IMG/VR virus record: IMGVR_UViG_3300025732_000018
DNA: 64,000 nt
Direction: 5' to 3' (one strand)
From: a virus
In this document: one piece after another, positions 9,932-60,593 of the stretch
Layout of the letters: each line of letters begins with the position of its first letter
Position numbering within the stretch: the first letter of the stretch is position 1
Notes under the pieces: model-generated
What the model saw: only the letters and a program-made list of their open reading frames with translations
What the model was told of the DNA's origin: nothing
Databases searched by the model: none
Translations under genes and position numbers: made by a program

Positions 9932-9937
9932 TAAATA
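9930..9937 (+). promoter_or_regulatory. T4-type late promoter (AATAAATA) for the glycosyltransferase genes
   Basis: NATAAATA overlapping the upstream stop codon, about 35 nt before ATG 9972. Confidence 0.6.
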
Positions 9938-9971
9938 CACGCGAGTCGTAATTCTACAACATGGAGTAGAC

Positions 9972-43062: not shown

Positions 43063-44138
43063 GTGAAGAACCTGGACTAGTTCTATTTACTAGTAAGAAG
43101 CTCAATATAACTGACATAGGACTTCCTCTATGGATACCTCGCAAGTATCCGTGGGAGAGAAGTGTCAATAGAATAAACCATGAACTCGGTAAGATCACCG
43201 ACGCGTTCAACTACACAATATCTTGTGAGACTATAGAAGAGATCCTTAGGGACGAGCCTCAGAACAACAAGACTTTCGAGGAGCAAGCGTTCTCTACAGC
43301 CCTTGACATCAAGAGAAAGACGGGAGACTCTAGGGTCTATCTCATGTACAGTGGAGGCATAGACAGCACTTCTGCTCTAGTGTCTTTCATGGAGACGTGG
43401 GGCGACGACCTAGAGAGACTTCACATAGCGATGTCGTATAGGTCGATCGACGAGTTTCCAGAGATGTGGCCTCTCATAAACTCTAAGTTCAAGGGAAGAA
43501 TACATAACTCCTTAGCTGACACTGAGGAGTACTACAAGAGAGGATACGTCGTGACTGGAGAGCATGGAGACCAGATCTTTGGGAGCGACGTATTGTTTAA
43601 GGTGGTCGATACTTACGGAGAAGCCGGTATCCACATGAAGTGGAAGAATAACATAGACATGGTGTATCGTCGTATGTTTGGGATCCCATTTGCTCCGCAC
43701 ATATCCGACTTCATCGACAGACACTGCCAAGGAATAAAGCACTCTCCAGTTCCTATAAGATCGTGCTACGACTGGGTTTGGTGGTTTAACTTTGTAAACA
43801 AGTGGCAGTTCGTCAAATATAGACTTCTTGCTACTAAGCAACACAGCGATGCTAAGTTACACTTTAGCAAGATCATAAACTTCTATGATACACCATCTTG
43901 GCAGAGGTGGAGTATGGACAACCATCACCTTAAGATCAAGGGTACGATGTTGTCTTATAAATATGCAGCGAAGAAGTTTATTGTAGACAAGACTGGCTTC
44001 ATAGACTACATTAATAAGCCTAAGGTCGGAAGCCTTCAGTACGTCAAGTCTAACTTTATGTCTCCAGACGGCATAGATACTAATCTAGATATAATGCCTC
44101 TTGAGAGATGCTTGGAGTTCGTTAACAATGATCAATGA
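43059..44138 (+). CDS. PP-loop ATP pyrophosphatase (asparagine-synthetase C-domain-like), paralog A
   Basis: YSGGIDS PP-loop and VTGEHGDQIFG. Confidence 0.7.
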   Translation: MSEEPGLVLFTSKKLNITDIGLPLWIPRKYPWERSVNRINHELGKITDAFNYTISCETIEEILRDEPQNNKTFEEQAFSTALDIKRKTGDSRVYLMYSGGIDSTSALVSFMETWGDDLERLHIAMSYRSIDEFPEMWPLINSKFKGRIHNSLADTEEYYKRGYVVTGEHGDQIFGSDVLFKVVDTYGEAGIHMKWKNNIDMVYRRMFGIPFAPHISDFIDRHCQGIKHSPVPIRSCYDWVWWFNFVNKWQFVKYRLLATKQHSDAKLHFSKIINFYDTPSWQRWSMDNHHLKIKGTMLSYKYAAKKFIVDKTGFIDYINKPKVGSLQYVKSNFMSPDGIDTNLDIMPLERCLEFVNNDQ

Positions 44139-44712
44139 GTATGTGGTCTACGTTGGGCATGACAATAGAATAGTTCACGCCGCGCACAACACTTCTATCT
44201 ATGTTCCAATAGTATACGAGAAGATTCTGTACTACTACATGGACTCTTTACCTCCCACAATGGACATATACGACTACTCCGTCATAAAGAAAGACGGAAA
44301 GAACACCTATATGAAGAGACTCGACATTACTGATCATATTCTAAAGGTGACTGAGAGTCAGAGAAACATAATTCGTATACTTGAAGACATGAATGACTTC
44401 TCTCGCTTCTACATGAGGGCGTACGAGACTAACTACGTGTCAAGGTACATGAACTTCTTTCTCTATGAAGAGATAGATGAGTATAAGAAGACTGGAGTAG
44501 TAGGTCCAATCTTAACATCGCTTAAAGACATTGATGACAGTTATAGCATTGACGATGTCGTAGATCGTGAGTCGATGAAGAGACAAGACGTGAAAAACAT
44601 GTTATCTTATCTTAACTCTGTAGAAGCTAAGGTACGAAAACTAATTAAGAAAGAAAAGTATGATGAGGCCTCGTTCTTCATCACCAAGGAGAGAGGTAAG
44701 ACGAGATGGTAA
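44128..44712 (+). CDS. Hypothetical protein B
   Basis: Paralogous to 44706..45323 (EYKKTGVVGPIL, VRKLIKKEK). Start moved to ATG 44128 after a GGAG SD. Confidence 0.65.
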   Translation: MINEYVVYVGHDNRIVHAAHNTSIYVPIVYEKILYYYMDSLPPTMDIYDYSVIKKDGKNTYMKRLDITDHILKVTESQRNIIRILEDMNDFSRFYMRAYETNYVSRYMNFFLYEEIDEYKKTGVVGPILTSLKDIDDSYSIDDVVDRESMKRQDVKNMLSYLNSVEAKVRKLIKKEKYDEASFFITKERGKTRW

Positions 44713-45323
44713 GTGAATCGGACTCTTTCTATGGTGTGTTGATATACGCAGATACCGGCTCAAAGAAAAGAATCATTCGCGTAGTTCCTATGGAATATAG
44801 GAAAGCCAAGGTCTTAATGACCGGTGTGGCGACATACGTCTATCTTGGTGAGATAAGTCGCGACTGCATGGAGAACCCAAGTTACTACACCTATGACGTG
44901 CGAGAAGGATTGAAGTACGTAGGAGGTCCAATAGATGAGACGACCGAACAGAGACTGGTGTTGAAGAAGATCATGATTAGCTATCTAGAGAAGCTTGAGA
45001 ACGTCAAGCACATGTATAAAAGCGCGTTCATACGACCGATCATCGATGAGGACATTTACGACGCCCTCATCATATACGACGTCGGAGAGTACGAGAAGAG
45101 TGGTAAGATAAGCCCTCTCCTCCAGTCAATGTACAAGGAGAACAAAAAGTTCACCAACATGGACGTATACGTCGGCTTCATAAAGCAGCGCTATGAGGAT
45201 CTGAACTACCAGATGGCGTATCTCTATAAGTTTGAGAGAACGGTAAAAAAGCTTATCAAGAAGAAGAAGTTCTCTCTCGCTAACCAGCTATTGAACGCAG
45301 AGTTCGAGAAAAGAATGCTCTGA
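44706..45323 (+). CDS. Hypothetical protein B'
   Basis: EYEKSGKISPLL and VKKLIKKKK; paralog of B. Confidence 0.65.
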   Translation: MVSESDSFYGVLIYADTGSKKRIIRVVPMEYRKAKVLMTGVATYVYLGEISRDCMENPSYYTYDVREGLKYVGGPIDETTEQRLVLKKIMISYLEKLENVKHMYKSAFIRPIIDEDIYDALIIYDVGEYEKSGKISPLLQSMYKENKKFTNMDVYVGFIKQRYEDLNYQMAYLYKFERTVKKLIKKKKFSLANQLLNAEFEKRML

Positions 45324-46360
45324 TGGGGATCATCCTCTACACTTATCCGTTCAAAGATAAGACTCTCAGGTTCGAGAGACCATGGTGTCCTACCGTGTAT
45401 CCGTACACGCAGTCAGTGAACCGCGTCCGAACTGGTCTAGATCCGTTCGAGTACACTAACCTGTGCGAGAGCATAGTAGAGATCAAGAGCCTACCCCAGT
45501 CGAAGAAGACGTTCTCAGAGATGTGCTTTGAGACAGCCGACCGCTTAAACAAGACCATTGACAAAAAAATGTACTTGTACTATAGTGGTGGAATGGACAG
45601 CGCCGCTGCTCTTCTTTCATTTAGAAAGATGATGTCAAAACAAGACCTTGAGAAGCTCTATATCGTGGCTTCTCACCATAGCATGCTAGAGTTTCCAGAG
45701 TTGTGGACTGAGATACACTATCAGTTTGCTGGTAGGATCATCAGTTCGTATGCTAATATGGAAGACTTGGCGACCGATGGTGTAGTTATAACGGGTCAAC
45801 ACGCAGACCATCTTCTTGGGTCCGATAACATCAGGAGAGTGTATAACACGCACGGAAACGAAGGAATAACTATGCCGTGGAGAGACGCGATGCTCCCCAT
45901 ATATACGGCTCAGTTCGGTGCAGAGACCGCTAGAAATTTCATTGATGTGTACGGAGAGACTACGTGTGAGTGCCCTTTCCCGATAGTCACTGCATTTGAC
46001 TGGGTGTGGTGGTTCGGCTTCACTAATAAGTGGCAGCATGCCAGATACAAGTTTCTAGGTTATAAGCCATGGAAGAATCCAAAGAAAACATATAAGAACG
46101 TCGTTCACTTCTTTGACACACCAGAGTGGCAGAAGTGGAGCCTGGACAATCACGACTTGAAAGTAGTGACTAACATAAAAGACTACAAGCACACGATACG
46201 CTCTTTTGTAATAGACGAGAGTGGTCATAAGTCATACGTAAAAAAGAAGAAAGAATCTAGTCTTAGAATGCTCTGGTATAACAAAGAGTTTTGCTATGGT
46301 GTGGCAGATGACTTTAGCGAGCTTACCAAGTATCAAAGCCTAGAGTTCATAGGTAGGTGA
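45323..46360 (+). CDS. PP-loop ATP pyrophosphatase (asparagine-synthetase C-domain-like), paralog A'
   Basis: YSGGMDS, ITGQHADHLLG and DWVWWFGFTNKWQ, shared with paralog A. Confidence 0.7.
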   Translation: MGIILYTYPFKDKTLRFERPWCPTVYPYTQSVNRVRTGLDPFEYTNLCESIVEIKSLPQSKKTFSEMCFETADRLNKTIDKKMYLYYSGGMDSAAALLSFRKMMSKQDLEKLYIVASHHSMLEFPELWTEIHYQFAGRIISSYANMEDLATDGVVITGQHADHLLGSDNIRRVYNTHGNEGITMPWRDAMLPIYTAQFGAETARNFIDVYGETTCECPFPIVTAFDWVWWFGFTNKWQHARYKFLGYKPWKNPKKTYKNVVHFFDTPEWQKWSLDNHDLKVVTNIKDYKHTIRSFVIDESGHKSYVKKKKESSLRMLWYNKEFCYGVADDFSELTKYQSLEFIGR

Positions 46361-46364
46361 AAAG

Positions 46365-47042
46365 ATGATTATTAAAACCGGAAAGACAAACGAGAGAATC
46401 GACCTTACGCATACCATGTACCCATGTGTGGCCTATATGGTTCGCGGTGAACTTCAGTCGTTCGAGCATAAGCACTCGACCGTCTACGGGTTTACGACTA
46501 AAGGTGCGAGGATATGCCTCACTGATGAGAGTCGTGACTTCGAAGAGATCGTACTTAAGAAGAATAGTTACTTCTGTATTCCAGTTCGTGGAAACGACGT
46601 GACTATCGAGAGCGACGAGTGCTTCGCTGTGTTTAAGCTAGGCTTCAATGGAATGGAGGCGTACGGTCGCCACCGGGACGAGCTAGGTCGTCTGTCTTAC
46701 ATCGACGGATGCTCTGACTCGCTTCTAGCGTTTCCACCTCGTCTTGGAGACCCGTCACTCAACTACCTCTACTTTCCACCGGGCATCGACCAGTCGTTCC
46801 ATACTCATCCGAGCATCCGAATCGGCTGTGTCATTCAGGGTTCTGGTAAGTCGAGTCTTCGTGACAAAGAGATCGACCTGGTTCCAGGAGTCATGTTTGC
46901 TCTTGAAGAGAAAGAGCTTCATCGGTTCAGAACTTCTGCCTCTGGAGATGTCATGAAGATCATAGCTTTCCATCCAGATGGAGACTGGGGTCCTACAGAT
47001 GAAAACCACACTATGCTTAACAGGACTTATATAGCGAAGTAA
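46365..47042 (+). CDS. Cupin-domain protein
   Basis: QSFHTHPSIRIG...ELHRF metal-binding cupin motifs. Confidence 0.75.
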   Translation: MIIKTGKTNERIDLTHTMYPCVAYMVRGELQSFEHKHSTVYGFTTKGARICLTDESRDFEEIVLKKNSYFCIPVRGNDVTIESDECFAVFKLGFNGMEAYGRHRDELGRLSYIDGCSDSLLAFPPRLGDPSLNYLYFPPGIDQSFHTHPSIRIGCVIQGSGKSSLRDKEIDLVPGVMFALEEKELHRFRTSASGDVMKIIAFHPDGDWGPTDENHTMLNRTYIAK

Positions 47043-47241: not shown

Positions 47242-47778
47242 ATGAACATATTCTATGTAGACGAGGACCCGGTCAAGGCAGCTCAGGCCCTCGTCGATAA
47301 GCACGTCGTCAAGATGATTCTTGAGTCGGCTCAGCTTCTATCCACTGCTCACCGAGTTTTGGACGGAGTCGAGTCGACTGCTCTGTCTAAGACCGGTCGC
47401 AAGAAAAAAGTATGGGCCCTCGGTGACAGCCGAGACTCTATCCTGTATCAAGCTACACACATCAACCATCCTTCAGCTGTATGGTGTCGCTACTCAGTCG
47501 AGAACTATCTCTGGCTGGTCGAGCACTTCTACGCTCTTCTTGACGAGTATACCTACCGCTACGGCAAGCGTCACAAGTGCTACGACTTAGCCTACACGCT
47601 TCAGTCGCCTCCGCACAACATGCGCCTGCACGAGGGTAGTCCCATGCCTTCAGCTATGGCTGACGAGTACAAGGTCGGATCAGACCCGTTGACAAATTAT
47701 CGTAACTATTATAAGTTTGGTAAATCATCCATGCATAAGTGGACCAAGCGACAACCTCCGGAGTGGATTGCAGCATGA
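47242..47778 (+). CDS. Pyrimidine-dimer DNA glycosylase (DenV-related) family protein
   Basis: MNIFY.D.DP..AA...DKHVVKMILESAQLLSTAH, THINHPS..W and YR.YY. Confidence 0.75.
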   Translation: MNIFYVDEDPVKAAQALVDKHVVKMILESAQLLSTAHRVLDGVESTALSKTGRKKKVWALGDSRDSILYQATHINHPSAVWCRYSVENYLWLVEHFYALLDEYTYRYGKRHKCYDLAYTLQSPPHNMRLHEGSPMPSAMADEYKVGSDPLTNYRNYYKFGKSSMHKWTKRQPPEWIAA

Positions 47779-48011
47779 AGAAGAGCAAGGACTATCTCGA
47801 GGGGTTCTATGACGGGTTTATGGCTGCACGCGTAAGCGGAGTTGTAACTCCTCAGCCGCCTACAGTAGACACTAAATGCCACGTATGTGGAATGGACTTT
47901 GCCAATAAGGTCTGGGGATATGTCTGTAATCATAATCAATGTCCAAGCAAGATGTCTTGGGCTGCTCGAGCAGCAACAGCAACTATGATGGGAAATAATA
48001 ATGAGTCGTGA
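47775..48011 (+). CDS. Hypothetical Zn-finger-like protein
   Basis: CHVC...CNHNQC; ATGA overlap with the upstream gene. Confidence 0.55.
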   Translation: MKKSKDYLEGFYDGFMAARVSGVVTPQPPTVDTKCHVCGMDFANKVWGYVCNHNQCPSKMSWAARAATATMMGNNNES

Positions 48012-48405
48012 CTGGGTAAAAGATATTTGGAGAATGCACAAACACTACGGCGTACATCCCGTAGTCGAGAGCATGGACGCAGACACTCTCAAGAAGTTTC
48101 TTGAGTTTCGCGTTAACTTCCTTCAGGAAGAGCTGGACGAGCTAAAGGCTAACAAGGATAACCCTGAAGAGATCGTCGACGCCCTCATCGACCTATGCGT
48201 CGTAGCCATCGGTACCCTCGACGGCTTTGCAGTTGACTCACACGCGGCTTGGGACGCAGTTCTCGAGGCTAACATGAACAAGACTCCGGGCGTGAAGGCC
48301 ACCCGTCCTAACCCCCTCGGTCTTCCAGACCTCATCAAGCCTGAAGGCTGGACAGCACCTAGCCACGCCGGCAATCACGGACTCTTAACTAAGATGGTTG
48401 AATAA
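48001..48405 (+). CDS. MazG/PRA-PH-family nucleoside triphosphate pyrophosphatase (possible dCTPase/dUTPase)
   Basis: LQEELDEL, EIVDALIDL, V.EANMNK and LIKPEGW. Confidence 0.8.
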   Translation: MSRDWVKDIWRMHKHYGVHPVVESMDADTLKKFLEFRVNFLQEELDELKANKDNPEEIVDALIDLCVVAIGTLDGFAVDSHAAWDAVLEANMNKTPGVKATRPNPLGLPDLIKPEGWTAPSHAGNHGLLTKMVE

Positions 48406-48417
48406 GGAGAGAAAACC

Positions 48418-48993
48418 ATGTTAGACTTCAGCGGTGAAGTCATTGCAACTTTGTCAAGCTTAAATAAAGTTGTCGATATGAGAGAGCATAAGGCCGACCT
48501 AGACATGATGGTCGCGACTAACTGGAAGCGCGAGATGCTACGTAAAGGCCCCAGGTCTTACGACGTAGTTAAAAGAAATACGGCTACCGGTCTAGGTGCC
48601 GAGATTGCAGTTCAATCAACTGGCTTCTTCAAGCAATCTTCACCTATCACCGAAGACGCCAAAGATCTCACTTTCGCTCAGAGAAAGACCGACGTGATTT
48701 GCGAGGGTAAGAACGGCGAGGTTAAGACTATGAATGCTAAGTACCCTTACTGGTACATTAGCAACGGTCAAGTCGAGTCAGTCAACTACTCAACTCGCTT
48801 CAACCAGTTCTTTCTGATCGTGGCCTACGAGGAGGTCCAACCGCTGAAGTACCGCTATCGCCCGCGTTATCTAGTTGACAGCAATAAGCTTTCAGGATAT
48901 ATTGTAAAGAATAACACTGGGTACAGCCCGTATCGCTTTGACCACGTGCGGGCCATCAAGAACGGCGACTGCATCGACCTATGGAGCAACTAA
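48418..48993 (+). CDS. Hypothetical protein, possible PD-(D/E)xK nuclease
   Basis: GLGAEIAV...TDVICEGKNGEVKT has E...D...EVK spacing. Confidence 0.45.
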   Translation: MLDFSGEVIATLSSLNKVVDMREHKADLDMMVATNWKREMLRKGPRSYDVVKRNTATGLGAEIAVQSTGFFKQSSPITEDAKDLTFAQRKTDVICEGKNGEVKTMNAKYPYWYISNGQVESVNYSTRFNQFFLIVAYEEVQPLKYRYRPRYLVDSNKLSGYIVKNNTGYSPYRFDHVRAIKNGDCIDLWSN

Positions 48994-49460
48994 TGTTTAC
49001 AATTCAACCGAATCATGAACGCGAGTCTGTCAAGGTACTCCGCGAGTGCATCGACCTGCAGCTCAAGAAGTCTCAAGACTACCAGAACCCGAACTCTAAC
49101 GTAGTTCAGGCCATGCACTATCGTCGCGGCATCGACTCGATCCATGACATCCTTCAAGGCAAGCTCTATCGAGCCCAGTCACTAATCGAGTCTGGTCGTG
49201 CTGACTCTGCTAACTTCGAGTCCCTTGAAGATACCTACAAGGATCTTATCAACTACGCCTCGTTCGCAGTCGCGTGGCTTCGCTACGGCGTTCCCGGCCA
49301 AGACAAAGAGCGCGACATCTTCAATCGAAAGAAGTCGACCTACAGCATCAATAGTCAGATCACTGACTCTGTAACTCAGTCTGGTACTTATCGCCCTGCT
49401 GACAATACGGTTAAGTTCAATCATGAGACCGGGGCTTATACCATCAACATGGGCTCGTAA
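48993..49460 (+). CDS. DUF1599/Nmad1-like nucleotide-modification-associated protein
   Basis: KKSQDY...KLYRA...ESLEDTYKDLINYASF. Confidence 0.7.
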   Translation: MFTIQPNHERESVKVLRECIDLQLKKSQDYQNPNSNVVQAMHYRRGIDSIHDILQGKLYRAQSLIESGRADSANFESLEDTYKDLINYASFAVAWLRYGVPGQDKERDIFNRKKSTYSINSQITDSVTQSGTYRPADNTVKFNHETGAYTINMGS

Positions 49461-49462
49461 GT

Positions 49463-50158
49463 ATGACCCTTTCCATTCAGCGCATCCGTTCTATCTTCCG
49501 GTTCATGCACGAGTCAGAAGACTACGTTATTGATAAGACTGGCGCTAAGATGATCGAGATCGTCAACGCTAGTTTCATCGCTGATGAAACTTCTATCTTT
49601 GGCACTGTCAATGAGAACTACGTCCAGCGAGAGCTCGAGTGGTACCGATCTCTCTCGCGTAACGTCAATGACATTCCCGGTGGTCCTCCTACTATCTGGA
49701 AAGAGGTAGCTGACAGTCGCGGCTTCATCAACTCTAACTACGGTTGGTGTATCTGGTCTGATGCTAATGGTCGTCAGTACAATCGGGTTCTAGAAGAGCT
49801 TCGAAAGAACCCGTACTCACGGCGAGCGGTGATGATCTACACGCGTCCTAGCATGTGGAACGACTACAATAAGGACGGAATGTCCGACTTTATGTGCACC
49901 AACGCGGTTCAGTATCTCATCCGCAATGGTAAGCTCAATGCCGTCGTTCAGATGCGATCTAACGATGCTGTCTTTGGCTACAAGAATGACTATGCCTGGC
50001 AACAGTACGTGCTCTCTCATCTAGCTAGAGAGCTTGACGTCGAGCCCGGAACTATCTATTGGAACGCAGGGAGCTTGCACGTATATGAGCGACACTTCAA
50101 GCTGGTCGTGGACTCAGAAGTATCTAAATCTAGCGAAGCACATTTCCAGCTGGTCTAA
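49463..50158 (+). CDS. gp42: dCMP hydroxymethylase (T4 gp42-like)
   Basis: INSNYGW and DFMCTNAVQYLIR...MRSNDAVFGYKNDYAWQ (Asp at the dCMP-specificity position), plus GSLHVYERHF. Confidence 0.88.
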   Translation: MTLSIQRIRSIFRFMHESEDYVIDKTGAKMIEIVNASFIADETSIFGTVNENYVQRELEWYRSLSRNVNDIPGGPPTIWKEVADSRGFINSNYGWCIWSDANGRQYNRVLEELRKNPYSRRAVMIYTRPSMWNDYNKDGMSDFMCTNAVQYLIRNGKLNAVVQMRSNDAVFGYKNDYAWQQYVLSHLARELDVEPGTIYWNAGSLHVYERHFKLVVDSEVSKSSEAHFQLV

Positions 50159-50627
50159 GGATCCAAGCTCAAAGATAGGAGCAGTGGCTGTGGGTAACCA
50201 TGGCCAGATCCTGTCTCAAGGTTACAATGGGTTTCCTCGCGGCATCGAGGACTCGTCCGACCGTCTCTACAATCGAGAGAAGAAGTATAAGTATGTGGTT
50301 CATGCAGAGATGAACTGCATATATAATGCCACGCTGAATGGAATAAGTCTAAATAACGCTGACCTCTACGTTCATGGACTTCCGGTTTGCTCAGATTGTG
50401 CCAAAGGAGTCATTCAGGTCGGTGTGAAGCGTGTGTTTATCTGTCAGCCCACTGTGATAGCACCGAGCTGGCACGAGTCTTACATGCACACCGAGTCGAT
50501 GTTCGTAGAGGCCGGCGTTGAGGCAGTTTGTTATGACAATGAAGGCAATGTTCTCCATGACACGAAGCGAAAAGCGCGTACTGATAGTGGGAATCAACCC
50601 ATCTGGCTCGGACCCTACCCGAGTTAG
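50085..50627 (+). CDS. cd: dCMP deaminase
   Basis: WSKDPS, GYNGFPRG, HAEMN and PVCSDC. Confidence 0.9.
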   Translation: MSDTSSWSWTQKYLNLAKHISSWSKDPSSKIGAVAVGNHGQILSQGYNGFPRGIEDSSDRLYNREKKYKYVVHAEMNCIYNATLNGISLNNADLYVHGLPVCSDCAKGVIQVGVKRVFICQPTVIAPSWHESYMHTESMFVEAGVEAVCYDNEGNVLHDTKRKARTDSGNQPIWLGPYPS

Positions 50628-50931
50628 CCAGTCCATCAAGAGACTCTGTAAGTGGACTGAGTCTCTCGGCTTAACTTTCTTCTCTTTCGTAAACTGTATC
50701 TCGCGACCAGGACCCTACCGAGAGTCCGACGTCGACTACGAGATGCTGCAAGAGTGTGTGAAAGGCTATAAGAAAGTAATAGCTCTTGGAAACTTTCCGT
50801 CGATGGCTCTCTCGAAGATCGAAGTCGAGCACTTCATGCTGCCTCATCCGTCTGGGCTAAATAGAAAGTTAAATGACAAGTCTTACGAGACAAAGATTCT
50901 GGAGGAGTGCCGTGAGTACATCGAGGCTTAA
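50557..50931 (+). CDS. Small uracil-DNA-glycosylase-superfamily-like protein (start uncertain)
   Basis: IVGINPS, VIALG and LPHPSGLNR motifs. Confidence 0.65.
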   Translation: MTRSEKRVLIVGINPSGSDPTRVSQSIKRLCKWTESLGLTFFSFVNCISRPGPYRESDVDYEMLQECVKGYKKVIALGNFPSMALSKIEVEHFMLPHPSGLNRKLNDKSYETKILEECREYIEA

Positions 50932-51811
50932 AGTTCTAATCACTGGCGTGCAAGGTTACATTGGTTCGACTCTCGCTCGTGAGATTCATCTTAATCACAA
51001 AGACAATATATGTGTGCATGGAACTGACCTAGTCGAGTCGGTTAACCAGAGTCAACAGTATGTTGAGAAGTACTTCAAGGCTGATGTCAGAAATGACTGG
51101 TCTCTTACTATGGCCAGTCTGCCGGAGTATGACTGCGTGGTGCACTTGGCTGGACTCATCTCAGTCGCCGAGTCAACGAATAAACCGACCGAGTATACTT
51201 TAACAAACGTCAATGGCACAATCAACGTGCTCGAGTGGTTCAACCCTAGAAACTTTATCTTTGCCTCAACGGCCGGAGCGTTTGATCCTATCAATCCATA
51301 TGCCCAAACAAAGATCTTAGCTGAGAGCATCATTCGTCAGTATGCTCATGAGTACACCATCTTTCGCTTCTTTAACGTTGCTGGATCTGACGGTGTAAAT
51401 CGACAGATTGGTGACTCGACTCATCTAGTTCGCATCGCCGCCGAGACCGCCGCCGGAAAGTGGAACAGTATGGACCTCTATGGTACTGACTATGATACTT
51501 CGGACGGAACATGTATCCGCGACTACATTCACGTATCAGATCTAGTTGACAGTATTGTTAAAGCAATTTACAATCCAAAGAATACTAAATATGAGTGTCT
51601 CGGTAACGGTAAAGGGTACACCAATCGAGAAGTCATAAACATGATGAAGAAAGTAAGTGGTCAGGACTTTGAGGTGGTAGAACGTGGACGACGAACCGGT
51701 GATCCGGCGTTTCTAGCTCTAAGACCAAATGAGGTCAGTTCTCTTGTAGAGAGCAAATATACACTAGAAGACATGTGCAGAAGCGCTTATCTTATTGCGG
51801 AGTCAGAATGA
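50912..51811 (+). CDS. galE: UDP-glucose 4-epimerase (GalE-like)
   Basis: TGVQGYIG, HLAGLISVAES, YAQTK, RFFNVAG and DGTCIRDYIHVSDL. GTG start with GGAGGA SD. Confidence 0.85.
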   Translation: MSTSRLKVLITGVQGYIGSTLAREIHLNHKDNICVHGTDLVESVNQSQQYVEKYFKADVRNDWSLTMASLPEYDCVVHLAGLISVAESTNKPTEYTLTNVNGTINVLEWFNPRNFIFASTAGAFDPINPYAQTKILAESIIRQYAHEYTIFRFFNVAGSDGVNRQIGDSTHLVRIAAETAAGKWNSMDLYGTDYDTSDGTCIRDYIHVSDLVDSIVKAIYNPKNTKYECLGNGKGYTNREVINMMKKVSGQDFEVVERGRRTGDPAFLALRPNEVSSLVESKYTLEDMCRSAYLIAESE

Positions 51812-52908
51812 AAAAGATCCTTATAACTGGAATGAACGCTGCTCAGTGCAAGAAAGATTACTTCTTGCAGCAGGAACTTCAGGTAGTTCCGTCTCACTAC
51901 GCTCTTATCCGAGTGCTGGAAGATATGGGATACCAAGTCGAGCAACGACCTATCTTACTTGGCGAGGATCTCTCTGGATACGACGAGGTCATCGTTTACA
52001 TGCACAGCATCCAAGCTTTTTGTCAGCGTCTCTTCGGCGGTCTATATGCCATGGGCGCGCGACAAGACTGTATCTTAGCCTTTGACGACTGGCAGGTAGA
52101 CCAGATCTATACCAGCTTTAGAAACTACATGGACGACCTTCGTGACGATCCTCAGAAGGCGTATCGCGAGTATCTGCTCGAGCTCTATCAGGGCAAGGAG
52201 TCTCTTGAAGACATCAAGAAGTACCACGACGTGTACGTTCAAGGTTGTGAGCTAGTCCTTCGCAAAAACAGTCGTCTGCTCGTGTCGGCTTTCGCCGGAG
52301 GAGACCTGTCGCTTCTGAAGCTACAGTGGAACGAGAACAAGGTGTTCCAGTTCAACCCTAACCCGTACCATCTCAACCGTCGACCGGACAACAATTACGG
52401 CGAGCCTGGATCTATTCTTTCTTTTGCCGGCAACAACGACGTCAACCCTGCCTCTAAGCTGAGAGTCTGGAACTTCGCGTCGCTCGTTCAGAAGAAGACT
52501 CAGAAGTGGCTCAAGCAGCAGAACATCAACAAGTGGGACATCAACTTCTACGGCGCTCGGCGCGGCGAGGAAGTAAAGCAGCAGCGTCTCACCGAGTCTG
52601 AGATGTGCCGAGTCTATAACTCTCAGTGGGGCTGCTTGATGCCGGGCTACTTTCACTCTGGGTCCGGTTGGTGGCGAGCTCGGCCTCTTCAGGTAGCCGA
52701 CGCCGGATCTATCCTCGTGTGCGACGATCGTGAGGGTTCAGTCTACGGCGAGGCCTACACCGGTCTTACTGCCGACAAGGTGGAAGGCATGACGCTGGAG
52801 GATCTTATCAAGACCGCGCGCTATCAGAAAGAGTGCTTGTACGAGAAGCACCCTCTGACTAAGGCAGTCACCAAGATGGAGATTAGTGCCATCCTGGAGT
52901 CTAAGTGA
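51808..52908 (+). CDS. Uncharacterised protein, putative GT-B DNA glycosyltransferase
   Basis: Size about 366 aa, Rossmann-like N-terminus KILITG, and a C-terminal WWRARPLQVADAGSIL reminiscent of GT-B donor-binding helices. Translationally coupled between galE and glf. Confidence 0.45.
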   Translation: MKKILITGMNAAQCKKDYFLQQELQVVPSHYALIRVLEDMGYQVEQRPILLGEDLSGYDEVIVYMHSIQAFCQRLFGGLYAMGARQDCILAFDDWQVDQIYTSFRNYMDDLRDDPQKAYREYLLELYQGKESLEDIKKYHDVYVQGCELVLRKNSRLLVSAFAGGDLSLLKLQWNENKVFQFNPNPYHLNRRPDNNYGEPGSILSFAGNNDVNPASKLRVWNFASLVQKKTQKWLKQQNINKWDINFYGARRGEEVKQQRLTESEMCRVYNSQWGCLMPGYFHSGSGWWRARPLQVADAGSILVCDDREGSVYGEAYTGLTADKVEGMTLEDLIKTARYQKECLYEKHPLTKAVTKMEISAILESK

Positions 52909-53903
52909 TGGCTAAGTATCTCGTAGTTGGAGCTGGTCTCTCGGGTGCTACCATCGCCCGAGAGCTTGCTGATGCCGGTCACACGGTAATAGTGATAGAC
53001 TCTCGAACTCATATCGCCGGTAACGCGTACGATGAGACCAACGAGTACGGTATTAGGGTACACAAGTACGGACCCCATCTATTTCATACTAACAACGAGA
53101 AAGTATTTGAGTATCTTAGTCGCTTTACAGAGTGGGTCGAGTATGACCACCGCGTAAAGGCTCTTCTTGAAGACGGACGCTACGTAACTTTTCCTCCTAA
53201 CAAAGAGACCAAGGAGATCGTTGGAGCAGAAAACGTAGTAGATACCTTCTATCGGCCGTACACCAAGAAGATGTGGGGAAAGGAGCTTGAGGAAGTCGCT
53301 CCAAAGATATTAGACCGCGTTCCCGGTCGCGACGACATGGAGGACAGATACTTTCCTAATGACAAGTACTGCTTCATGCCCGTAGAAGGGTACACTAAGA
53401 TGGTCGAAAACATGCTAGATCATCAAAACATTAGAGTCTGGCTAGCATACCCATTTAAGAAGCACATGGAAGACTCGTATGATCACGTGTTCAACAGCAT
53501 GGCGATCGACGAGTACTACGGCTATCAGTTTGGTGAGCTCGAGTATCGATCAATCAAGTTTCACACTACGACTGCACCTATTCCTAAAGCTCTTCCAGCT
53601 ACTACAGTCAACTTTACTAACGACGGTCCACTTACGCGAGTGACCGAATGGAAGAACCTGCCGCGTCACGGAAACAACCCGTACTTCACGACTCTTACTG
53701 CGGAAGAACCGTGCGACTATAAAGATAACAACTACGAGCGATACTATCCTATCTCTGATGATATAAATAAGGACAGGTACGCCAAGTACGCATCTATCAA
53801 GAACGATAAAGTTACGTTCATCGGCCGCTGCGGGCAGTACGTCTACATTGATATGCACCAGGCGGTCAACTCCGCCCTTAGAATCGCGATGGATTACAAG
53901 TGA
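52908..53903 (+). CDS. glf: UDP-galactopyranose mutase
   Basis: VVGAGLSG, HIAGNAYD, HKYGPHLFHT, YTKKMWG, RYYP and GRCGQYVYIDMHQ. Confidence 0.92.
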   Translation: MAKYLVVGAGLSGATIARELADAGHTVIVIDSRTHIAGNAYDETNEYGIRVHKYGPHLFHTNNEKVFEYLSRFTEWVEYDHRVKALLEDGRYVTFPPNKETKEIVGAENVVDTFYRPYTKKMWGKELEEVAPKILDRVPGRDDMEDRYFPNDKYCFMPVEGYTKMVENMLDHQNIRVWLAYPFKKHMEDSYDHVFNSMAIDEYYGYQFGELEYRSIKFHTTTAPIPKALPATTVNFTNDGPLTRVTEWKNLPRHGNNPYFTTLTAEEPCDYKDNNYERYYPISDDINKDRYAKYASIKNDKVTFIGRCGQYVYIDMHQAVNSALRIAMDYK

Positions 53904-55102
53904 CCTTCACACACGCATCAATCGTTCCCCTCATCGGCGGCGAGACTCTCGGCACCGAGCAAGCCTTCGGTCGCCCTCCCGAGTACCTTATGTCGTACGA
54001 GCCTTTCTGGGCAAACGACCGACACCTCGTCAACCACTACCGCGGCGAGATTCCCTACTACGTTCTAGACAAGAACGAGAAGCCAGACAAGAAGGTCGAC
54101 GTCATCGGGTCAGTCTGCCCGTGCGCTGGCCTCAGCATGCTTTCTCACGGCTACGGCGACGACAACGCTAACAACCGGTGGATGATCGAGACGGCTAAGT
54201 TCGTTCTCGGTGAGATGAAACCTAAGGTGTTCTGGGGCGAGAACGCTCCGGGCTTCGCCGGCAAGGTGGGTAAGAACATCCGAACCCAGATGTACAACAT
54301 CGGTCGAGAGAACGGGTACACGTTCACGGTGTATAGAACCAAGTCTCTCTTCCACGGCGTGCCTCAGATCCGAGAGAGGTCGTTCTACTTCTTCTGGCAG
54401 TCTGACAAGACTCCCAAGCTGAACTACTACAACACCCCACACAAGAGCATCGAGCAGACCATCCTAGACGCTCGAGGCAACACGCTGCAGGAGCCGATCA
54501 ACAAGAAGACCCCGTCACAGGATCCATACTACCGCTACATCCTAGAGCACATCAACGGCGGAATGACTCACCGCGAGTTCTCAGCTCAGGTCGAGCCTTC
54601 TCGGGCCAGAGGGAACGACACGTTCTCTTACATCGAGAAGCAGGGGATCACCTACGACAAGGTCTCTGAGTGGATGACTGCCAACGGATACGAGCGAGAG
54701 GCTGCGAGCTGCATGCGAAAGTACGAGAAGCTTAAGTCCGGCGGCTCGATCATGCGTCGCGGAACTGTCGTCCCTAAGGACTACATCGGGGCCTTCGTCG
54801 GCCACTATCCAGTCTCCCTCACGCATCCGATCGAGGATCGCTACATTACGTATCGAGAGGGGTTGACAATTATGGGACTTCCTGATACATTTGAACTATT
54901 GGATCCTAAGGACAGCGCCAACCACATGTGCCAGAACGTACCAGTTCAGACGGCCCGTGACATGGCTACTGAGATTCTAGGTTGGTTGAACGGTGAGCGC
55001 GAAGAGTTCAATTCAAACTACGTCTATCAATATAATGGAACAAAGACACATGAGTTCGGTGACATACAAGATGGCTCGAGAAAAATCTCCTCCTTCCTAT
55101 AA
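53900..55102 (+). CDS. Atypical DNA cytosine-C5 methyltransferase-like protein
   Basis: PCAGLS (motif IV), ENAPG (VI), PQIRER (VIII) and REGLTIMGLPD. Motif I is degenerate (SIVPLIGG). Confidence 0.72.
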   Translation: MTFTHASIVPLIGGETLGTEQAFGRPPEYLMSYEPFWANDRHLVNHYRGEIPYYVLDKNEKPDKKVDVIGSVCPCAGLSMLSHGYGDDNANNRWMIETAKFVLGEMKPKVFWGENAPGFAGKVGKNIRTQMYNIGRENGYTFTVYRTKSLFHGVPQIRERSFYFFWQSDKTPKLNYYNTPHKSIEQTILDARGNTLQEPINKKTPSQDPYYRYILEHINGGMTHREFSAQVEPSRARGNDTFSYIEKQGITYDKVSEWMTANGYEREAASCMRKYEKLKSGGSIMRRGTVVPKDYIGAFVGHYPVSLTHPIEDRYITYREGLTIMGLPDTFELLDPKDSANHMCQNVPVQTARDMATEILGWLNGEREEFNSNYVYQYNGTKTHEFGDIQDGSRKISSFL

Positions 55103-55370
55103 GTTTAATGAGGAAAACCTCCTCAATGAGCTACACGCTTACATCGCTAATACATACACACAGCACTACATCGGTAGGGATAACATCCAGGCCTTTGAGC
55201 TGATCTCGGCTGCAGGTCACGGCATGGGCTTCACCATCGGTGACATCATCAAGTACGCCTCTCGCTACGGCAAGAAGAACGGCCGCAACCGAGCCGACCT
55301 CCTAAAGATCCTTCACTACGGGATCCTAGCCCTCTACATTCATGACAAGGAAACCGCTGATGGAAATTAA
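55071..55370 (+). CDS. DUF3310-like protein
   Basis: YKFNE, TYTQHY, GDIIKYASRYGKK and DLLKILHY. Confidence 0.7.
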   Translation: MAREKSPPSYKFNEENLLNELHAYIANTYTQHYIGRDNIQAFELISAAGHGMGFTIGDIIKYASRYGKKNGRNRADLLKILHYGILALYIHDKETADGN

Positions 55371-56235
55371 GATCGACCTAGAGCAGATTAGGAAGCTTAA
55401 GCTGTTCGTAGCTACACCTATGTACGGCGGTCAGTGCGCCGGCATGTACAACAAGTCGATGTGCGACTTAACGACCATGTGCGTTAAGTATGGTATCGAT
55501 ATGCGGGCTTACTATCTCTTCAACGAGTCTCTCATCACTCGAGCTCGTAACTACTGCGTCGACGAGTTTCTTCGCAGCGACGCTACCCACATGCTCTTCA
55601 TTGACTCCGACATCGGCTTCAATCCTCAGGACGTTCTCGCCATGCTGGCGCTCATGACGCCGGAGTCTGAGTACGACGTTCTGGGCGCGCCCTATCCTAA
55701 GAAGACTATCTCTTGGGAGAAGATCAAGCATGCCGTCAACGTTGGTGCGGCAGACAAGGATCCTAGCTACCTAGAGAACTTCGTCGGCGACTACGTCTTC
55801 AATCCAGTCGGAGACAAGAAAGAGATCCCGATCGGTGAGCCTGCAGAGGTTCTTGAGACCGGCACCGGATTTATGATGATTCGTAGGAAGACTCTCGAGA
55901 AGTACGCGGAGGCTTACCCACAACACAGCTATCGTCCTGACCACGCTCGCTCAGAGTCGTTCGACGGCTCACGAGAGATCTTGATGTACTTCCAGGCTGA
56001 CATCGACCCGGAGAGCAGGCGATACCTGTCAGAGGACTACCTGTTCTGCCAGAACGCTCGCAAGATCGGACTTAAGGTTTGGCTCTGCCCGTGGATGAAG
56101 CTGCAGCACGTTGGAATGTACATCTTCGGAGGTAGCCTAGCCGCCATCGCTTCTATCGGCGCGTCTCCTACAGTCGATGAGGCTAAGTTAGGTAAGAACC
56201 TAAAGAAGAAACAGAAGTTCAAAGGAAGAAGGTAA
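55360..56235 (+). CDS. GT-A (GT2-like) glycosyltransferase
   Basis: ATPMYGG, NESLITRARN, FIDSD, GTGFMMIRR and LSEDY.FC. Confidence 0.75.
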   Translation: MEIKIDLEQIRKLKLFVATPMYGGQCAGMYNKSMCDLTTMCVKYGIDMRAYYLFNESLITRARNYCVDEFLRSDATHMLFIDSDIGFNPQDVLAMLALMTPESEYDVLGAPYPKKTISWEKIKHAVNVGAADKDPSYLENFVGDYVFNPVGDKKEIPIGEPAEVLETGTGFMMIRRKTLEKYAEAYPQHSYRPDHARSESFDGSREILMYFQADIDPESRRYLSEDYLFCQNARKIGLKVWLCPWMKLQHVGMYIFGGSLAAIASIGASPTVDEAKLGKNLKKKQKFKGRR

Positions 56236-56245
56236 GAGGTAAATT

Positions 56246-56905
56246 ATGAAGATCAGTGAAAACACAATTAACACTCTCAAGAGCTTCTCGGTCATCAACC
56301 AGTCCATCATGGTTCGACCGGGGTCGAAGATCAGCACGATGTCTCCCTCCGAGACTATCATTGCATCGGCCAAGGTCGAGGAGGAGTTTCCGACGCAGTT
56401 CTGCATCTACGAGCTTCCTCGATTCCTAGGCGTCGTGTCTCTGTTTGAAGATCCTGACTTCGACTTCAGCGACACCGCGGTCACGATTCGCAGCGGAAAG
56501 AAGAAGACGTCGATCACTTACGCCGCTCCAGGAATGATCGTCACACCTCCTGCTGGCGACATCAACTTTCCTGAGCCCGAGGTAGAGTTCAAGCTGGCCG
56601 GCACCGACCTTCTCAACATTCTCAAGGCTGCGACTGTGATGCAGCTTCCTGAGGTGGCTATCACCGGCAACGGTGGCAGTATCTTGCTCGAGGCCATCGA
56701 CAACAAGAACCCAACGGCCGACACTTACTCAATTGCGGTAGGTGAGACTAACAAGACGTTTCGCATGATCTTTAAGATCGAGAACCTGAAGCTCATCAAC
56801 TCAGACTATCACGTCTCAGTATCGTCTCGCGGTCTCAGCAAGTTCTCGAACGACAAGCTAACTTACTTCGTGGTGACGGAGGCTACTTCAACGTACGAGG
56901 GTTGA
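56246..56905 (+). CDS. gp45: Sliding clamp gp45
   Basis: MKISENTINTLKSFSVINQSI and FCIYELPRFL. Confidence 0.92.
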   Translation: MKISENTINTLKSFSVINQSIMVRPGSKISTMSPSETIIASAKVEEEFPTQFCIYELPRFLGVVSLFEDPDFDFSDTAVTIRSGKKKTSITYAAPGMIVTPPAGDINFPEPEVEFKLAGTDLLNILKAATVMQLPEVAITGNGGSILLEAIDNKNPTADTYSIAVGETNKTFRMIFKIENLKLINSDYHVSVSSRGLSKFSNDKLTYFVVTEATSTYEG

Positions 56906-56907
56906 CA

Positions 56908-57162
56908 ATGTCTTACGATTATGATACTATCAAACTATATCTTAAGACCATGAACGGAGTCGTCAGCTTCAAGAAGCGAGACGGCTCACTTAGAACGATG
57001 AAGTGCACGCTCAGGGGAGAAGCCCTCCCTGAGCAGACCGACATAGAGGAACACGCCTCGGCTCCTAACAAGGAGTACCTCGCGGTGTGGGACCTCGATA
57101 AGAATGGATGGAGGTCGTTTAGGATTGACTCTATAGAGGACATCACCTTCGTCACCGCTTGA
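56908..57162 (+). CDS. Small WYL/SH3-like protein (DUF2693-like)
   Basis: VSFKKRDGSLRTMKCT...VWDLDKNGWRSFR. Confidence 0.7.
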   Translation: MSYDYDTIKLYLKTMNGVVSFKKRDGSLRTMKCTLRGEALPEQTDIEEHASAPNKEYLAVWDLDKNGWRSFRIDSIEDITFVTA

Positions 57163-59127: not shown

Positions 59128-59182
59128 GTAGTCGCCTAATGGGGCTACGAATCTATGTCTCGCTTAATAGGAGAAAAACATG
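59128..59182 (+). ncRNA. ROSE-like RNA thermometer in the hsp20 5' UTR
   Basis: Two hairpins. The 3' one, TCTC(G)CT-TAAT-AGGAGA, pairs the SD and has the bulged-G UCGCU motif. Confidence 0.65.
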
Positions 59183-59698
59183 ACAGACTGGCGTACATAC
59201 AAGTTTGACCACACTTTTGCGGATCTTGACAAGTTCAACAAGTTCTTCGTCGGCTCCGACAAGCTGGTTCAAAAGGTCACAGAGACCGTCGAGCACATCG
59301 CTAAGACAGCCGGCTCTACCTTCCCACCTTTCAATCTCAAGAAGACTGACGACAATACCTACGTCATCGAGATGGCGGTTGCTGGCTTCGGCAAGCAAGA
59401 CGTCGAGCTTACTCTCGAGGACAACAAGTTAGTCATCAAGGGCCAGACTACGGTCGAGACCCTCACCGATGATGGTATTAACGTCCAGTACCTTCACAAG
59501 GGTATTGCCGACCGAGCGTTCACTCGCACCTTCTCTCTAGCAGACAACGTAGTAGTCAACAACGCTGCCATGATGAACGGAATCTTGAAGATCTGGCTTG
59601 AGCACATCATTCCAGAAGACAAGAAGCCTAAGAAGATTGACATCGCTGACTCAGTAGAACCTGCTAAGAAGACGAAGAAGCAGCTCCTCACCGAGTAA
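59180..59698 (+). CDS. Small heat-shock protein (Hsp20/IbpA-like)
   Basis: FPPFNL, IEMAVAGF, YLHKGIA.RAF.R.F.LA and NGIL.I.LE. Confidence 0.93.
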   Translation: MTDWRTYKFDHTFADLDKFNKFFVGSDKLVQKVTETVEHIAKTAGSTFPPFNLKKTDDNTYVIEMAVAGFGKQDVELTLEDNKLVIKGQTTVETLTDDGINVQYLHKGIADRAFTRTFSLADNVVVNNAAMMNGILKIWLEHIIPEDKKPKKIDIADSVEPAKKTKKQLLTE

Positions 59699-59722
59699 TC
59701 TCAAACTTTGTTATGATAAAAG

Positions 59723-59747
59723 AGTGGCTGGGTAACTCCCGGCCACT
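59723..59747 (+). terminator. Hairpin after hsp20 (putative terminator or processing site)
   Basis: AGTGGCTGGG-TAACT-CCCGGCCACT, with a weak U-tail. Confidence 0.45.
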
Positions 59748-59784
59748 TACTCATTTCACACGCGTACTAGAAAGAATAATAACA

Positions 59785-59955
59785 ATGCCTAAGATACTTA
59801 AAAACATGCTCAAGAAATACAAGAACTACAAGCTATATGCCAAGACCGTCGACGAGCTGTCTGCTCTTTCTGACAAGGACCTCAAGGACATCGGCATCTC
59901 GAGGTCTGAGATCAAGTCTGTAGCTACCAGGCAGTACATTCGCAAGGCAAAATAA
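59785..59955 (+). CDS. DUF1127 (YjiS-like) small protein
   Basis: KTVDELSALSDKDLKDIGISRSEI signature. Confidence 0.8.
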   Translation: MPKILKNMLKKYKNYKLYAKTVDELSALSDKDLKDIGISRSEIKSVATRQYIRKAK

Positions 59956-59958
59956 ATA
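59951..59958 (+). promoter_or_regulatory. Late promoter AATAAATA for the GH19 lysin
   Basis: NATAAATA about 27 nt upstream of ATG 59985, which has an AGGAG SD. Confidence 0.65.
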
Positions 59959-59984
59959 TCGCAGAACCTTTATAGGAGAGTGCG

Positions 59985-60593
59985 ATGTTAACTATGGAAC
60001 AGCTGTCTCGATGCTTTGAGACTGATAAGTCAATTCTAGAGAAGTATCTAGTTCCGCTGATCAAGTGCTTCGACAGATTCGAGATCAACACCTCAGAGAG
60101 AATCGCAATGTTTCTCGCTCAAGTTGGTCACGAGTCTGCCGGCCTTAAGACCGTCAAGGAGAACCTGAATTACTCGGCAGAGAGATTGATTCAGGTGTTT
60201 CCTAAGTACTTTAGAAACGTCAGCGCGACTTCATACGCTCGGAACCCAGAGAAGATAGCCAACCGAGTCTACGCCAACAGGATGGGAAACGGTCCTGAGG
60301 AGTCTGGGGACGGTTGGAAGTACAGGGGGCGCGGAGCCATACAGCTGACCGGAAAAGACAACTACGGTCGATTCGCGAAGTCGATGGGAATGAAGTTAGA
60401 AGACGTTCCCGCCTACCTCGAGACTCCAGAGGGAGCCATCATGTCTGCTGGTTGGTTCTGGGACGTCAATAAGCTCAACGAGTCTGCTGACGCCGAAGAC
60501 GTCGAAGCGTCGACTAGAAAGATCAACGGTGGCGTCAACGGCCTCGACGACCGAAAGAAGCACTACAAGAAGATCAGATCTATAATCGGTTGA
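59985..60593 (+). CDS. GH19 (chitinase-like) endolysin
   Basis: FLAQVGHES, ENLNYS, YRGRGAIQLTG..NY and INGG.NGL.DR. Confidence 0.88.
   Translation: MLTMEQLSRCFETDKSILEKYLVPLIKCFDRFEINTSERIAMFLAQVGHESAGLKTVKENLNYSAERLIQVFPKYFRNVSATSYARNPEKIANRVYANRMGNGPEESGDGWKYRGRGAIQLTGKDNYGRFAKSMGMKLEDVPAYLETPEGAIMSAGWFWDVNKLNESADAEDVEASTRKINGGVNGLDDRKKHYKKIRSIIG

Follow-up and report, generated by a model that had tools for sequence, protein, structure and literature searches.

What does a T4-like phage attach to its DNA when a single run of its genes encodes both a cytosine hydroxymethylase and enzymes for making a furanose sugar donor? Glycosylated 5-hydroxymethylcytosine (5hmC) is a classical DNA modification. 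The question was raised by IMG/VR virus record IMGVR_UViG_3300025732_000018, of which a stretch of 64,000 nucleotides (the window) was analysed. The window is a T4-like phage genome, encoding the gp20 portal, gp21 protease, gp22 scaffold, and gp23 capsid proteins together with UvsY, UvsW, gp47/46, gp45, gp44, gp62, RegA, and gp43. The gene run in question (the module) is located on the plus strand between gp46/47 and gp45, with neighbouring genes abutting or overlapping, and the clamp gene gp45 begins directly 3' of it at position 56246. For this tightly coupled run (48001-56235) an original prediction had proposed a pathway that decorates 5hmC with galactofuranose (Galf). All genes named in that prediction were present on the plus strand and abutted or overlapped one another; the list had, however, left out a gene for a 191-amino-acid protein at 48418-48993. 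We judged the chances to be about even that the whole chain would operate as proposed, with cytosine replaced by 5hmC and Galf attached to it from UDP-Galf by a glycosyltransferase (GT) resembling T4 beta-glucosyltransferase (BGT).

When the module region was compared with 50,697 phage records by megablast, no match was found. Related loci were retrieved with a 14-sequence alignment of the GT, and the block recurred in 80 IMG/VR loci. Gene neighbours were counted in the 37 IMG/VR relatives that had wide flanks, and all counts out of 37 below refer to these. A thymidylate synthase (TS) homolog was located upstream of the GT gene in 37/37 loci, and a gene resembling C5-cytosine methyltransferases (C5-MTases) was located downstream in 35/37. 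Given this recurrence, the gene arrangement is not due to chance.

The gene between galE and glf (51808..52908), to which no family had been assigned and which was proposed to encode the Galf-transferring enzyme, did prove to have the structure of a glycosyltransferase. Clustering at 90% left 672 homologs of this protein and clustering at 50% left 497 representatives, nearly all of them viral or metagenomic. No Pfam family was found for these homologs, and sequence searches of the PDB, both with this protein and with the GT-A fold protein encoded at the end of the module, gave nothing usable. Modelling with AlphaFold2 on an alignment of 50 diverse homologs gave a predicted local distance difference test score (pLDDT) of 94.7 and showed two Rossmann-like domains. 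The comparison with T4 BGT and T4 alpha-glucosyltransferase (AGT) that had been suggested as a check was carried out with Foldseek, and BGT ranked first (E 7e-8). VIA-align likewise placed T4 BGT at the top (Z 17.8 over 303 residues, root-mean-square deviation 3.7), followed by generic GT-B enzymes at Z of about 16.3 and T4 AGT at Z 16.1. The model and VIA-align thus agreed on a compact GT-B fold of about 350 residues, as in the BGT family (GT63). Profile alignment with BGT by HHalign was weak and confined to the N-terminus (32% identity over 73 residues, probability 39%). Residues invariant in the family include D94, W95, E263, R290, and R292. On the modelled structure we regard the GT-B fold as secure, and a particular closeness to BGT as modest.

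We further investigated the acceptor of this GT family, and both gene fusions and genomic contexts pointed to DNA. Among the 150 representatives listed, 22 proteins had at least 450 residues, and 14 of these joined an N-terminal C5 DNA_methylase domain to a C-terminal GT. A uracil-DNA glycosylase (UDG) domain was located between methylase and GT in three of the 14 fusions, and in some the methylase domain contained an intein. In a PolA-type phage, the genes immediately before one fusion encoded a TS homolog with the dCMP signature, a MazG-like protein, and a dCMP deaminase. This protein (L090:8001-12230, P0236) is 1409 amino acids long and carries, in a single chain, a C5-MTase, an intein with a LAGLIDADG endonuclease, a UDG domain, and a BGT-like GT. 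We also observed a conserved stretch of about 55 residues, matching no Pfam family, in the linkers or tails of almost all long GT-containing proteins, either N- or C-terminal to the GT (for example P0173, P0180, P0182, P0192, P0197, and P0227).

Kyanoviridae phage C48C1 (OQ984149.1) carried, at 7580-11027, an operon in the order TET/JBP dioxygenase (Tet_JBP 63 bits), GT homolog (36% identical), and Glf (60% identical), and its genome contained no TS homolog and no C5-MTase. This operon may allow a furanosylated hydroxymethylpyrimidine to be made after replication, perhaps with thymine as the base, as in base J. A two-gene Glf-GT cassette followed motA in Aeromonas phage 25 and in Erwinia phage FBB1, a gp42-type TS was encoded elsewhere in the Aeromonas phage 25 genome, and many related Aeromonas phages matched both GT and Glf. 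Aeromonas phages Aes508 and phiAS4 and Erwinia phage FBB1 likewise combine gp42 with Glf and the GT; phage 44RR2.8t lacks the cassette. In Providencia phage PSTRCR_121 (2962-8514) a distant member of the GT family was located among genes for an SIS isomerase, a nucleotidyltransferase-kinase, a HAD phosphatase, and a U32 protein, the same components as those of the RB69 arabinosylation cluster. A member in a Gordonia phage adjoined a GT1 enzyme and a C5 methylase. From the fusions and the TS and TET neighbours, 51808..52908 is therefore predicted to encode a DNA-base glycosyltransferase, and the link to DNA-base chemistry that had been claimed for it was backed by the fusions and by four independent genomic contexts.

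The base was addressed through the active site of the TS homolog (49463..50158). In an alignment with E. coli ThyA, T4 gp42, and RB69 gp48, the window protein showed D/C/D/D at ThyA positions 143/146/169/177, identical to T4 gp42, and the same signature was found in 78/78 homologs from related loci, including that of Aeromonas phage 25. Pfam and the alignment together supported a thymidylate-synthase fold with the catalytic Cys at ThyA C146, and Asp is found at the positions of both ThyA N177 and L143. Asp177 confers dCMP specificity and the acidic residue 143 admits water; T4 gp42-type hydroxymethylases keep Asp at ThyA 169, and RB69-type TS homologs, which make 5-hydroxy-dCMP, carry Asn there (Lee et al. 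2026, PMC13326640). A 5-hydroxy-dCMP synthase of the RB69 gp48 type was ruled out, in that the window protein has Asp169 (RSND) against RSQN in RB69 gp48. With D169 kept and the signature as in T4 gp42, the predicted base should therefore be 5hmC rather than the 5-hydroxycytosine (5hoC) of RB69. The enzyme had been named a gp42-type dCMP hydroxymethylase, which was borne out by this signature and by about 60% identity to Tequatrovirus gp42.

The identity of the sugar depends on the donor. The best PDB matches of the window Glf were bona fide UDP-galactopyranose mutases (down to 1e-65), and E. coli Glf residues R170, R278, Y151, Y181, Y311, Y346, and W156 of the substrate-binding set, like those that bind FAD, fell in columns invariant in the three phage Glfs aligned. 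The top PDB matches of GalE were all UDP-glucose 4-epimerases, and its GxxGxxG and YxxxK motifs were visible in the translation. Together with the Pfam scores (Table 1), both enzymes were confirmed as the mutase and epimerase that had been claimed. The GT gene adjoined Glf in four lineages (the window's clade, Aeromonas Tulanevirus, Erwinia FBB1, and C48C1), and the Aeromonas phages had no homolog of the GT-A family phrog_1574, leaving the GT as the only phage enzyme next to Glf there. UDP-Galf from the adjacent Glf is therefore the likeliest donor, as judged from gene neighbourhoods. When 57 distinct close homologs of the GT were placed in a tree, Glf adjoined 33 and was not adjacent in 24. 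The 24 Glf-less GTs formed one clade, so that a single change explains the pattern, and 0/500 label shuffles needed so few. Three consistent differences between the two groups, A291S, P293V, and L294Q, lay within the invariant motif GSGWWRARPLQ; these substitutions would fit a changed donor pocket but prove nothing.

The gene run ends with a second glycosyltransferase gene (55360..56235), to which the addition of a second sugar had been tentatively ascribed. The GT-A fold stood: the model (pLDDT 73) matched STIV A197 (E 3e-8), LH3, COLGALT1, GlfT2, and many others in Foldseek, and a DSD motif (D88-S89-D90) was invariant in the family, as expected of a GT-A enzyme with a DxD motif. Pfam glycosyltransferase matches were below threshold only. 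Its family is very large and highly conserved, and the gene was found in 35/37 relatives irrespective of Glf. Caulobacter phage Cr30 and Stenotrophomonas phage DLP_6 also had it at this position ahead of gp45, and neither of them had a gp42-type enzyme or a GT homolog. Since these phages carry the GT-A gene without the module, it belongs to the backbone of the phage lineage and is probably no component of the module, and the second-sugar role is left without comparative support.

The C5-MTase-like gene, on the other hand, is a near-obligate partner of the GT, and its product is proposed to act with the GT on DNA. Its CPCAGLS, GENAPG, and PQIRER motifs were conserved at 90% or more in 54 homologs, with PC, ENA, and QxRxR kept. 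Motif I (FxGxGG), which binds S-adenosylmethionine (AdoMet), reads PLIGGE in this protein, and PCQ is changed to PCA in both free and fused forms. The fused forms read FAGGF, PCA, and ESV and are without the motif X Asn. Gln82 and Asn304 of M.HhaI flank the transferred group, and the Q82A substitution lowers methyl transfer (PMC3526304). Against PDB entry 8YF3 the match reached E 0.005 only, and complex prediction for the MTase-like protein with the GT gave a score of 0.00, which is no evidence either way. A CmoX carboxymethyltransferase was rejected, as the window protein reads SVCPC and not SPPC, and has QNV, with the Asn kept, and no Arg at M.HhaI N304. A methyltransferase-TET (MT-TET) route was likewise rejected for the window's lineage: no Tet_JBP was found in the contigs of five relatives (74-91% complete) in a search for which C48C1 served as positive control, and none was found among the window open reading frames (ORFs) scanned with Pfam. 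C5-MTases perform cofactor-free reactions on 5hmC in vitro. Given the adjacency and fusion to the GT, the Ala equivalent to Gln82, and the degenerate AdoMet motif, it is conceivable, if improbable, that the enzyme is no cytosine methyltransferase but acts on 5hmC itself, attacking C6 so as to flip and activate the base, which it would then pass to the GT or whose C5 substituent it would swap. Such an activity would be the natural equivalent of those in vitro reactions. If true, the MTase-like/GT pair would represent a new two-enzyme way to hypermodified cytosines, with Galf as one of several outputs.

The small UDG-like protein that had been listed in the run was upheld by MUG-like motifs (GINPS and HPSGLN) invariant in 21 homologs, although its Pfam score of 23.3 bits was just below the family cut-off of 24.3. 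When this free protein and the UDG domain present in the fusions were compared as profiles, the probability was only 5%, and the motifs differed (GINPS versus GEAPG).

Taken together, the pathway could be laid out as follows. The MazG-like enzyme would hydrolyse dCTP and feed dCMP to the hydroxymethylase, a dCTPase role assigned by analogy with T4 gp56, and the dCMP deaminase would supply dUMP. The gp42-type enzyme, whose signature matches that of experimentally characterised enzymes, would turn dCMP into 5-hydroxymethyl-dCMP, and a kinase and the phage polymerase would then put 5hmC into DNA. GalE would make UDP-galactopyranose and Glf would contract it to UDP-Galf, two steps for which the enzyme identities are well supported. 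In duplex DNA, the hydroxymethyl group of 5hmC would then receive the furanose through the BGT-like GT, and if this enzyme inverts as BGT does, the product would be beta-D-galactofuranosyl-5hmC. The MUG-like protein may excise deaminated hmC. Modification would thus be both pre- and post-replicative, encoded by a module inserted between gp46/47 and gp45, and would serve for protection from host nucleases, as T4 glucosylation does.

A number of observations weigh against this pathway. The Galf-DNA coat is a prediction from sequence. The margin of BGT over generic GT-B enzymes in the structural comparison was small (Z 17.8 versus 16.3). No T4 gp1-type hmdCMP kinase was found in the contigs of five relatives (L011, L036, L052, L081, and L033; 74-91% complete; no positive control). 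Compared to E. coli Glf, the window Glf is without 34 residues of helical domain 2, a deletion common to phage C48C1 and not present in Aeromonas phage 25. The C5-MTase-like enzyme is unexplained: because 5hmC would be made pre-replicatively by the TS homolog, it has no obvious substrate if the C5 of every cytosine is already occupied. GalE was adjacent in only 5/37 relatives; a search of two Glf-positive contigs (74-79% complete) did not find it, while in one relative's contig it was present away from the module; host UDP-Gal must therefore usually suffice in the relatives. Moreover, the sister clade (24/57 close GTs) keeps the GT at 50-55% identity without Glf nearby, and Glf was not found in two contigs of this clade (104 and 125 kb; 61-74% complete; positive control found). 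Therefore either the GT family is not bound to UDP-Galf, or the host supplies UDP-Galf. The claim of Galf transfer to hmC came through each of the computational tests that could be applied, on the gp42-type enzyme, the GT-B fold, the link to DNA-base chemistry, and the intact Glf, but it is weaker as regards the donor, which the Glf-less sister clade shows not to be fixed for the family.

The same sister clade is one reason to consider that the GT adds a pyranose (glucose or galactose) to 5hmC and that Galf is used by another enzyme, for example by the GT-A protein as a second sugar. The GT-A model does match the galactofuranosyltransferase GlfT2, and the DNA of Rhizobium phage RL38J1 has galactose and then glucoses, added via several GTs (PMC13326640). 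GlfT2 was, however, just one of many generic GT-A matches, and the GT-A gene was found in relatives with or without Glf as well as in the module-free Cr30 and DLP_6. The Aeromonas phages, which carry the two-gene Glf-GT cassette, have no GT-A homolog, and in FBB1 and C48C1, too, Glf adjoins the GT. We therefore consider a pyranose unlikely, though not far-fetched. The donor could also differ in another way, with the mutase acting on some other nucleotide sugar and the base bearing a GalNAc furanose, a 6-deoxy furanose, or a pentose furanose. Glf homologs that handle UDP-GalNAc or dTDP-fucose exist. The 34-residue deletion, the dispensability of GalE in most relatives, and the distant GT member in an arabinofuranose-type cluster would agree with such a donor, whereas the position of GalE immediately upstream of the GT in the window, the invariance of the UDP-Gal-binding columns in all three aligned phage Glfs, and the PDB matches to bona fide mutases argue for UDP-Gal, and we hold another furanose to be quite improbable.

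It is also worth asking whether GalE, Glf, and the GT serve a target other than DNA, such as a surface polysaccharide or virion proteins, with the hmC pathway as an unrelated neighbour. Glf is classically an envelope-glycan enzyme, and actinophages, in which relatives of the GT were found, are known to glycosylate their virions. An earlier phage paper did read a phage Glf as an envelope-glycan enzyme (PMC6630229). A non-DNA target would nevertheless leave aside the recurring proteins in which the GT domain is fused to C5-DNA-methylase and UDG domains, the TET/JBP-GT-Glf operon of C48C1, the adjacency of the TS homolog in all 37 relatives, and T4 BGT as top structural match with T4 AGT at Z 16.1, and it seems very unlikely to us. 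The reading that we prefer thus remains transfer of Galf to 5hmC in DNA.

The features of the module are collected in Table 1. The other family assignments of the original prediction (NTP pyrophosphatase, Nmad1, dCMP deaminase, C5-MTase-like, and DUF3310) were reproduced by Pfam with a reporting limit of E 0.01. By inspection of start codons, the likely true starts are 50184 for dcd, 50912 for GalE, 52908 for Glf, and 55360 for the GT-A gene.

Table 1. Genes of the module, with their positions in the window and the evidence for each assignment. Counts out of 37 are relatives with the gene.
Feature	Position	Strand	Evidence
MazG/PRA-PH-type NTP pyrophosphohydrolase	48001..48405	+	Pfam PRA-PH 27 bits; phrog_671 5e-18; in 25/37 relatives
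191-amino-acid protein	48418..48993	+	no Pfam or PHROG match; same-sized gene at this place in relative L006
Nmad1/DUF1599 protein	48981..49460	+	DUF1599 27 bits; phrog_1485 2e-14; in 32/37 relatives
gp42-type dCMP hydroxymethylase	49463..50158	+	Thymidylat_synt 80 bits; ~60% identity to Tequatrovirus gp42
dCMP deaminase	50184..50627	+	dCMP_cyt_deam_1 65 bits; GTG start after AGGAG; in 29/37 relatives
Small UDG-superfamily protein	50533..50931 (ORF from 50518)	+	UDG 23.3 bits; in 19/37 relatives
GalE, UDP-glucose 4-epimerase	50912..51811	+	Epimerase 111 bits; PDB 1e-43; adjacent in 5/37 relatives
BGT-like GT-B glycosyltransferase, 366 amino acids	51808..52908	+	no Pfam family; AlphaFold2 model with GT-B fold
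Glf, UDP-galactopyranose mutase	52908..53903	+	GLF 172 bits; PDB UDP-galactopyranose mutase 1e-65
C5-cytosine methyltransferase-like protein	53900..55102	+	DNA_methylase 72 bits; in 35/37 relatives
DUF3310 protein	55071..55370 (open from 54993, start uncertain)	+	DUF3310 44 bits
GT-A fold glycosyltransferase, 291-297 amino acids	55360..56235 (ORF from 55342)	+	phrog_1574; in 35/37 relatives

The protein encoded at 48418-48993 fell, in an Atlas feature search, into a viral cluster carrying the automatic name DUF5843, and the PHROG families that bear DUF3310 include nucleotide kinases. Several genes near the module were also observed. Just upstream, 47242-47778 encodes a pyrimidine-dimer DNA glycosylase of the T4 endonuclease V type (Pyr_excise 25 bits). 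Five abutting genes follow gp46 at 43059-47042, for which Pfam supported a cupin (46365-47042) and a weak metallo-beta-lactamase match only; this cassette was missing from the close relative L006, which had a peptide deformylase in its place. On the other side, a gene for a small WYL_2 (Sm-like SH3) protein was located at 56902-57162, between the sliding clamp gp45 and the clamp loader gp44. An Hsp20 small heat-shock protein and a Glyco_hydro_19 gene were located at 59180-60593, between regA and the DNA polymerase; the product of the latter resembles class I chitinases and is possibly an endolysin.

If the pathway operates as proposed, galactofuranosyl-5hmC would be new among natural DNA bases. 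Like glucosyl-5hmC and arabinofuranosyl-5hoC, it would be a sugar coat on which cleavage of phage DNA by restriction enzymes, type IV systems, and CRISPR nucleases depends. The GT family has no Pfam model and hundreds of metagenomic representatives, and its carriers include Aeromonas and Erwinia phages that are in culture and easy to grow, so the chemistry is testable at once. To our knowledge Galf is absent from mammals, and DNA bearing it could matter for detection reagents and for the immunology of phage therapy. The recurrent fusion of the GT with a C5-MTase-like protein is an unexplained enzyme partnership that may reveal new cytosine chemistry. The statement that no Galf-bearing DNA base had been characterised was accurate as regards Galf-hmC in the literature searched, in which phage Glfs were likewise not connected to 5hmC, to this GT family, or to Aeromonas phages. 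It has to be qualified in that an arabinofuranosyl-5hoC is proven and Galf has been proposed for RL38J1.

Among the closest known systems is the glucosyl-5hmC pathway of T4 and the other T-even phages. Both have a hydroxymethylase with the same signature (about 60% identical), a dCMP deaminase, an all-alpha NTP pyrophosphatase, and a small GT-B enzyme, that of the window having T4 BGT as its best structural match. The two differ in the donor, which in the window would be UDP-Galf made via GalE and Glf and in T4 is host UDP-glucose. Unlike in T4, moreover, the window's module has no recognisable gp1 kinase and contains additional C5-MTase-like, UDG-like, Nmad1, and DUF3310 genes, and its GT has no Pfam match to BGT, the HHalign match covering the N-terminus only. 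A furanose on DNA is known from RB69 and DLP3, in which D-arabinofuranosyl-5-hydroxycytosine was proven by nuclear magnetic resonance (Lee et al. 2026, PMC13326640). In those phages, as predicted for the window, a TS-superfamily enzyme makes a modified dCMP, the phage makes a furanose nucleotide sugar, and GT-B enzymes decorate the DNA. Their base is 5hoC, however, made with D169N and a flavin cofactor, whereas the window enzyme keeps D169, and their D-arabinofuranose arises through an isomerase, a phosphatase, a kinase, and a uridylyltransferase instead of Glf. The RB69 GTs are MshA/BshA-like, unlike the window GT, although the PSTRCR_121 cluster does hold a distant relative of it. Phage RL38J1 (Pootjesviridae) has hexosylated 5hoC with a base-proximal galactose for which UDP-Galf was proposed as donor (PMC13326640), and like the window it encodes a UDP-galactopyranose mutase. 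RL38J1 differs in its base, in a Glf that is not beside the proposed galactosyltransferase, and in its phage family, and a tblastn search at E 1e-3 detected no match between that galactosyltransferase and the window GT. Lastly, the phage MT/5mYOX(TET)/GT clusters (Pyle et al. 2023, 10.1101/2023.12.21.572611) resemble the window's module in linking a C5-MTase homolog to a DNA GT that acts on 5hmC. The TET/JBP-GT-Glf operon of C48C1 resembles these clusters too, whereas no TET was found in the window's lineage and its 5hmC would be made before replication by the TS homolog.

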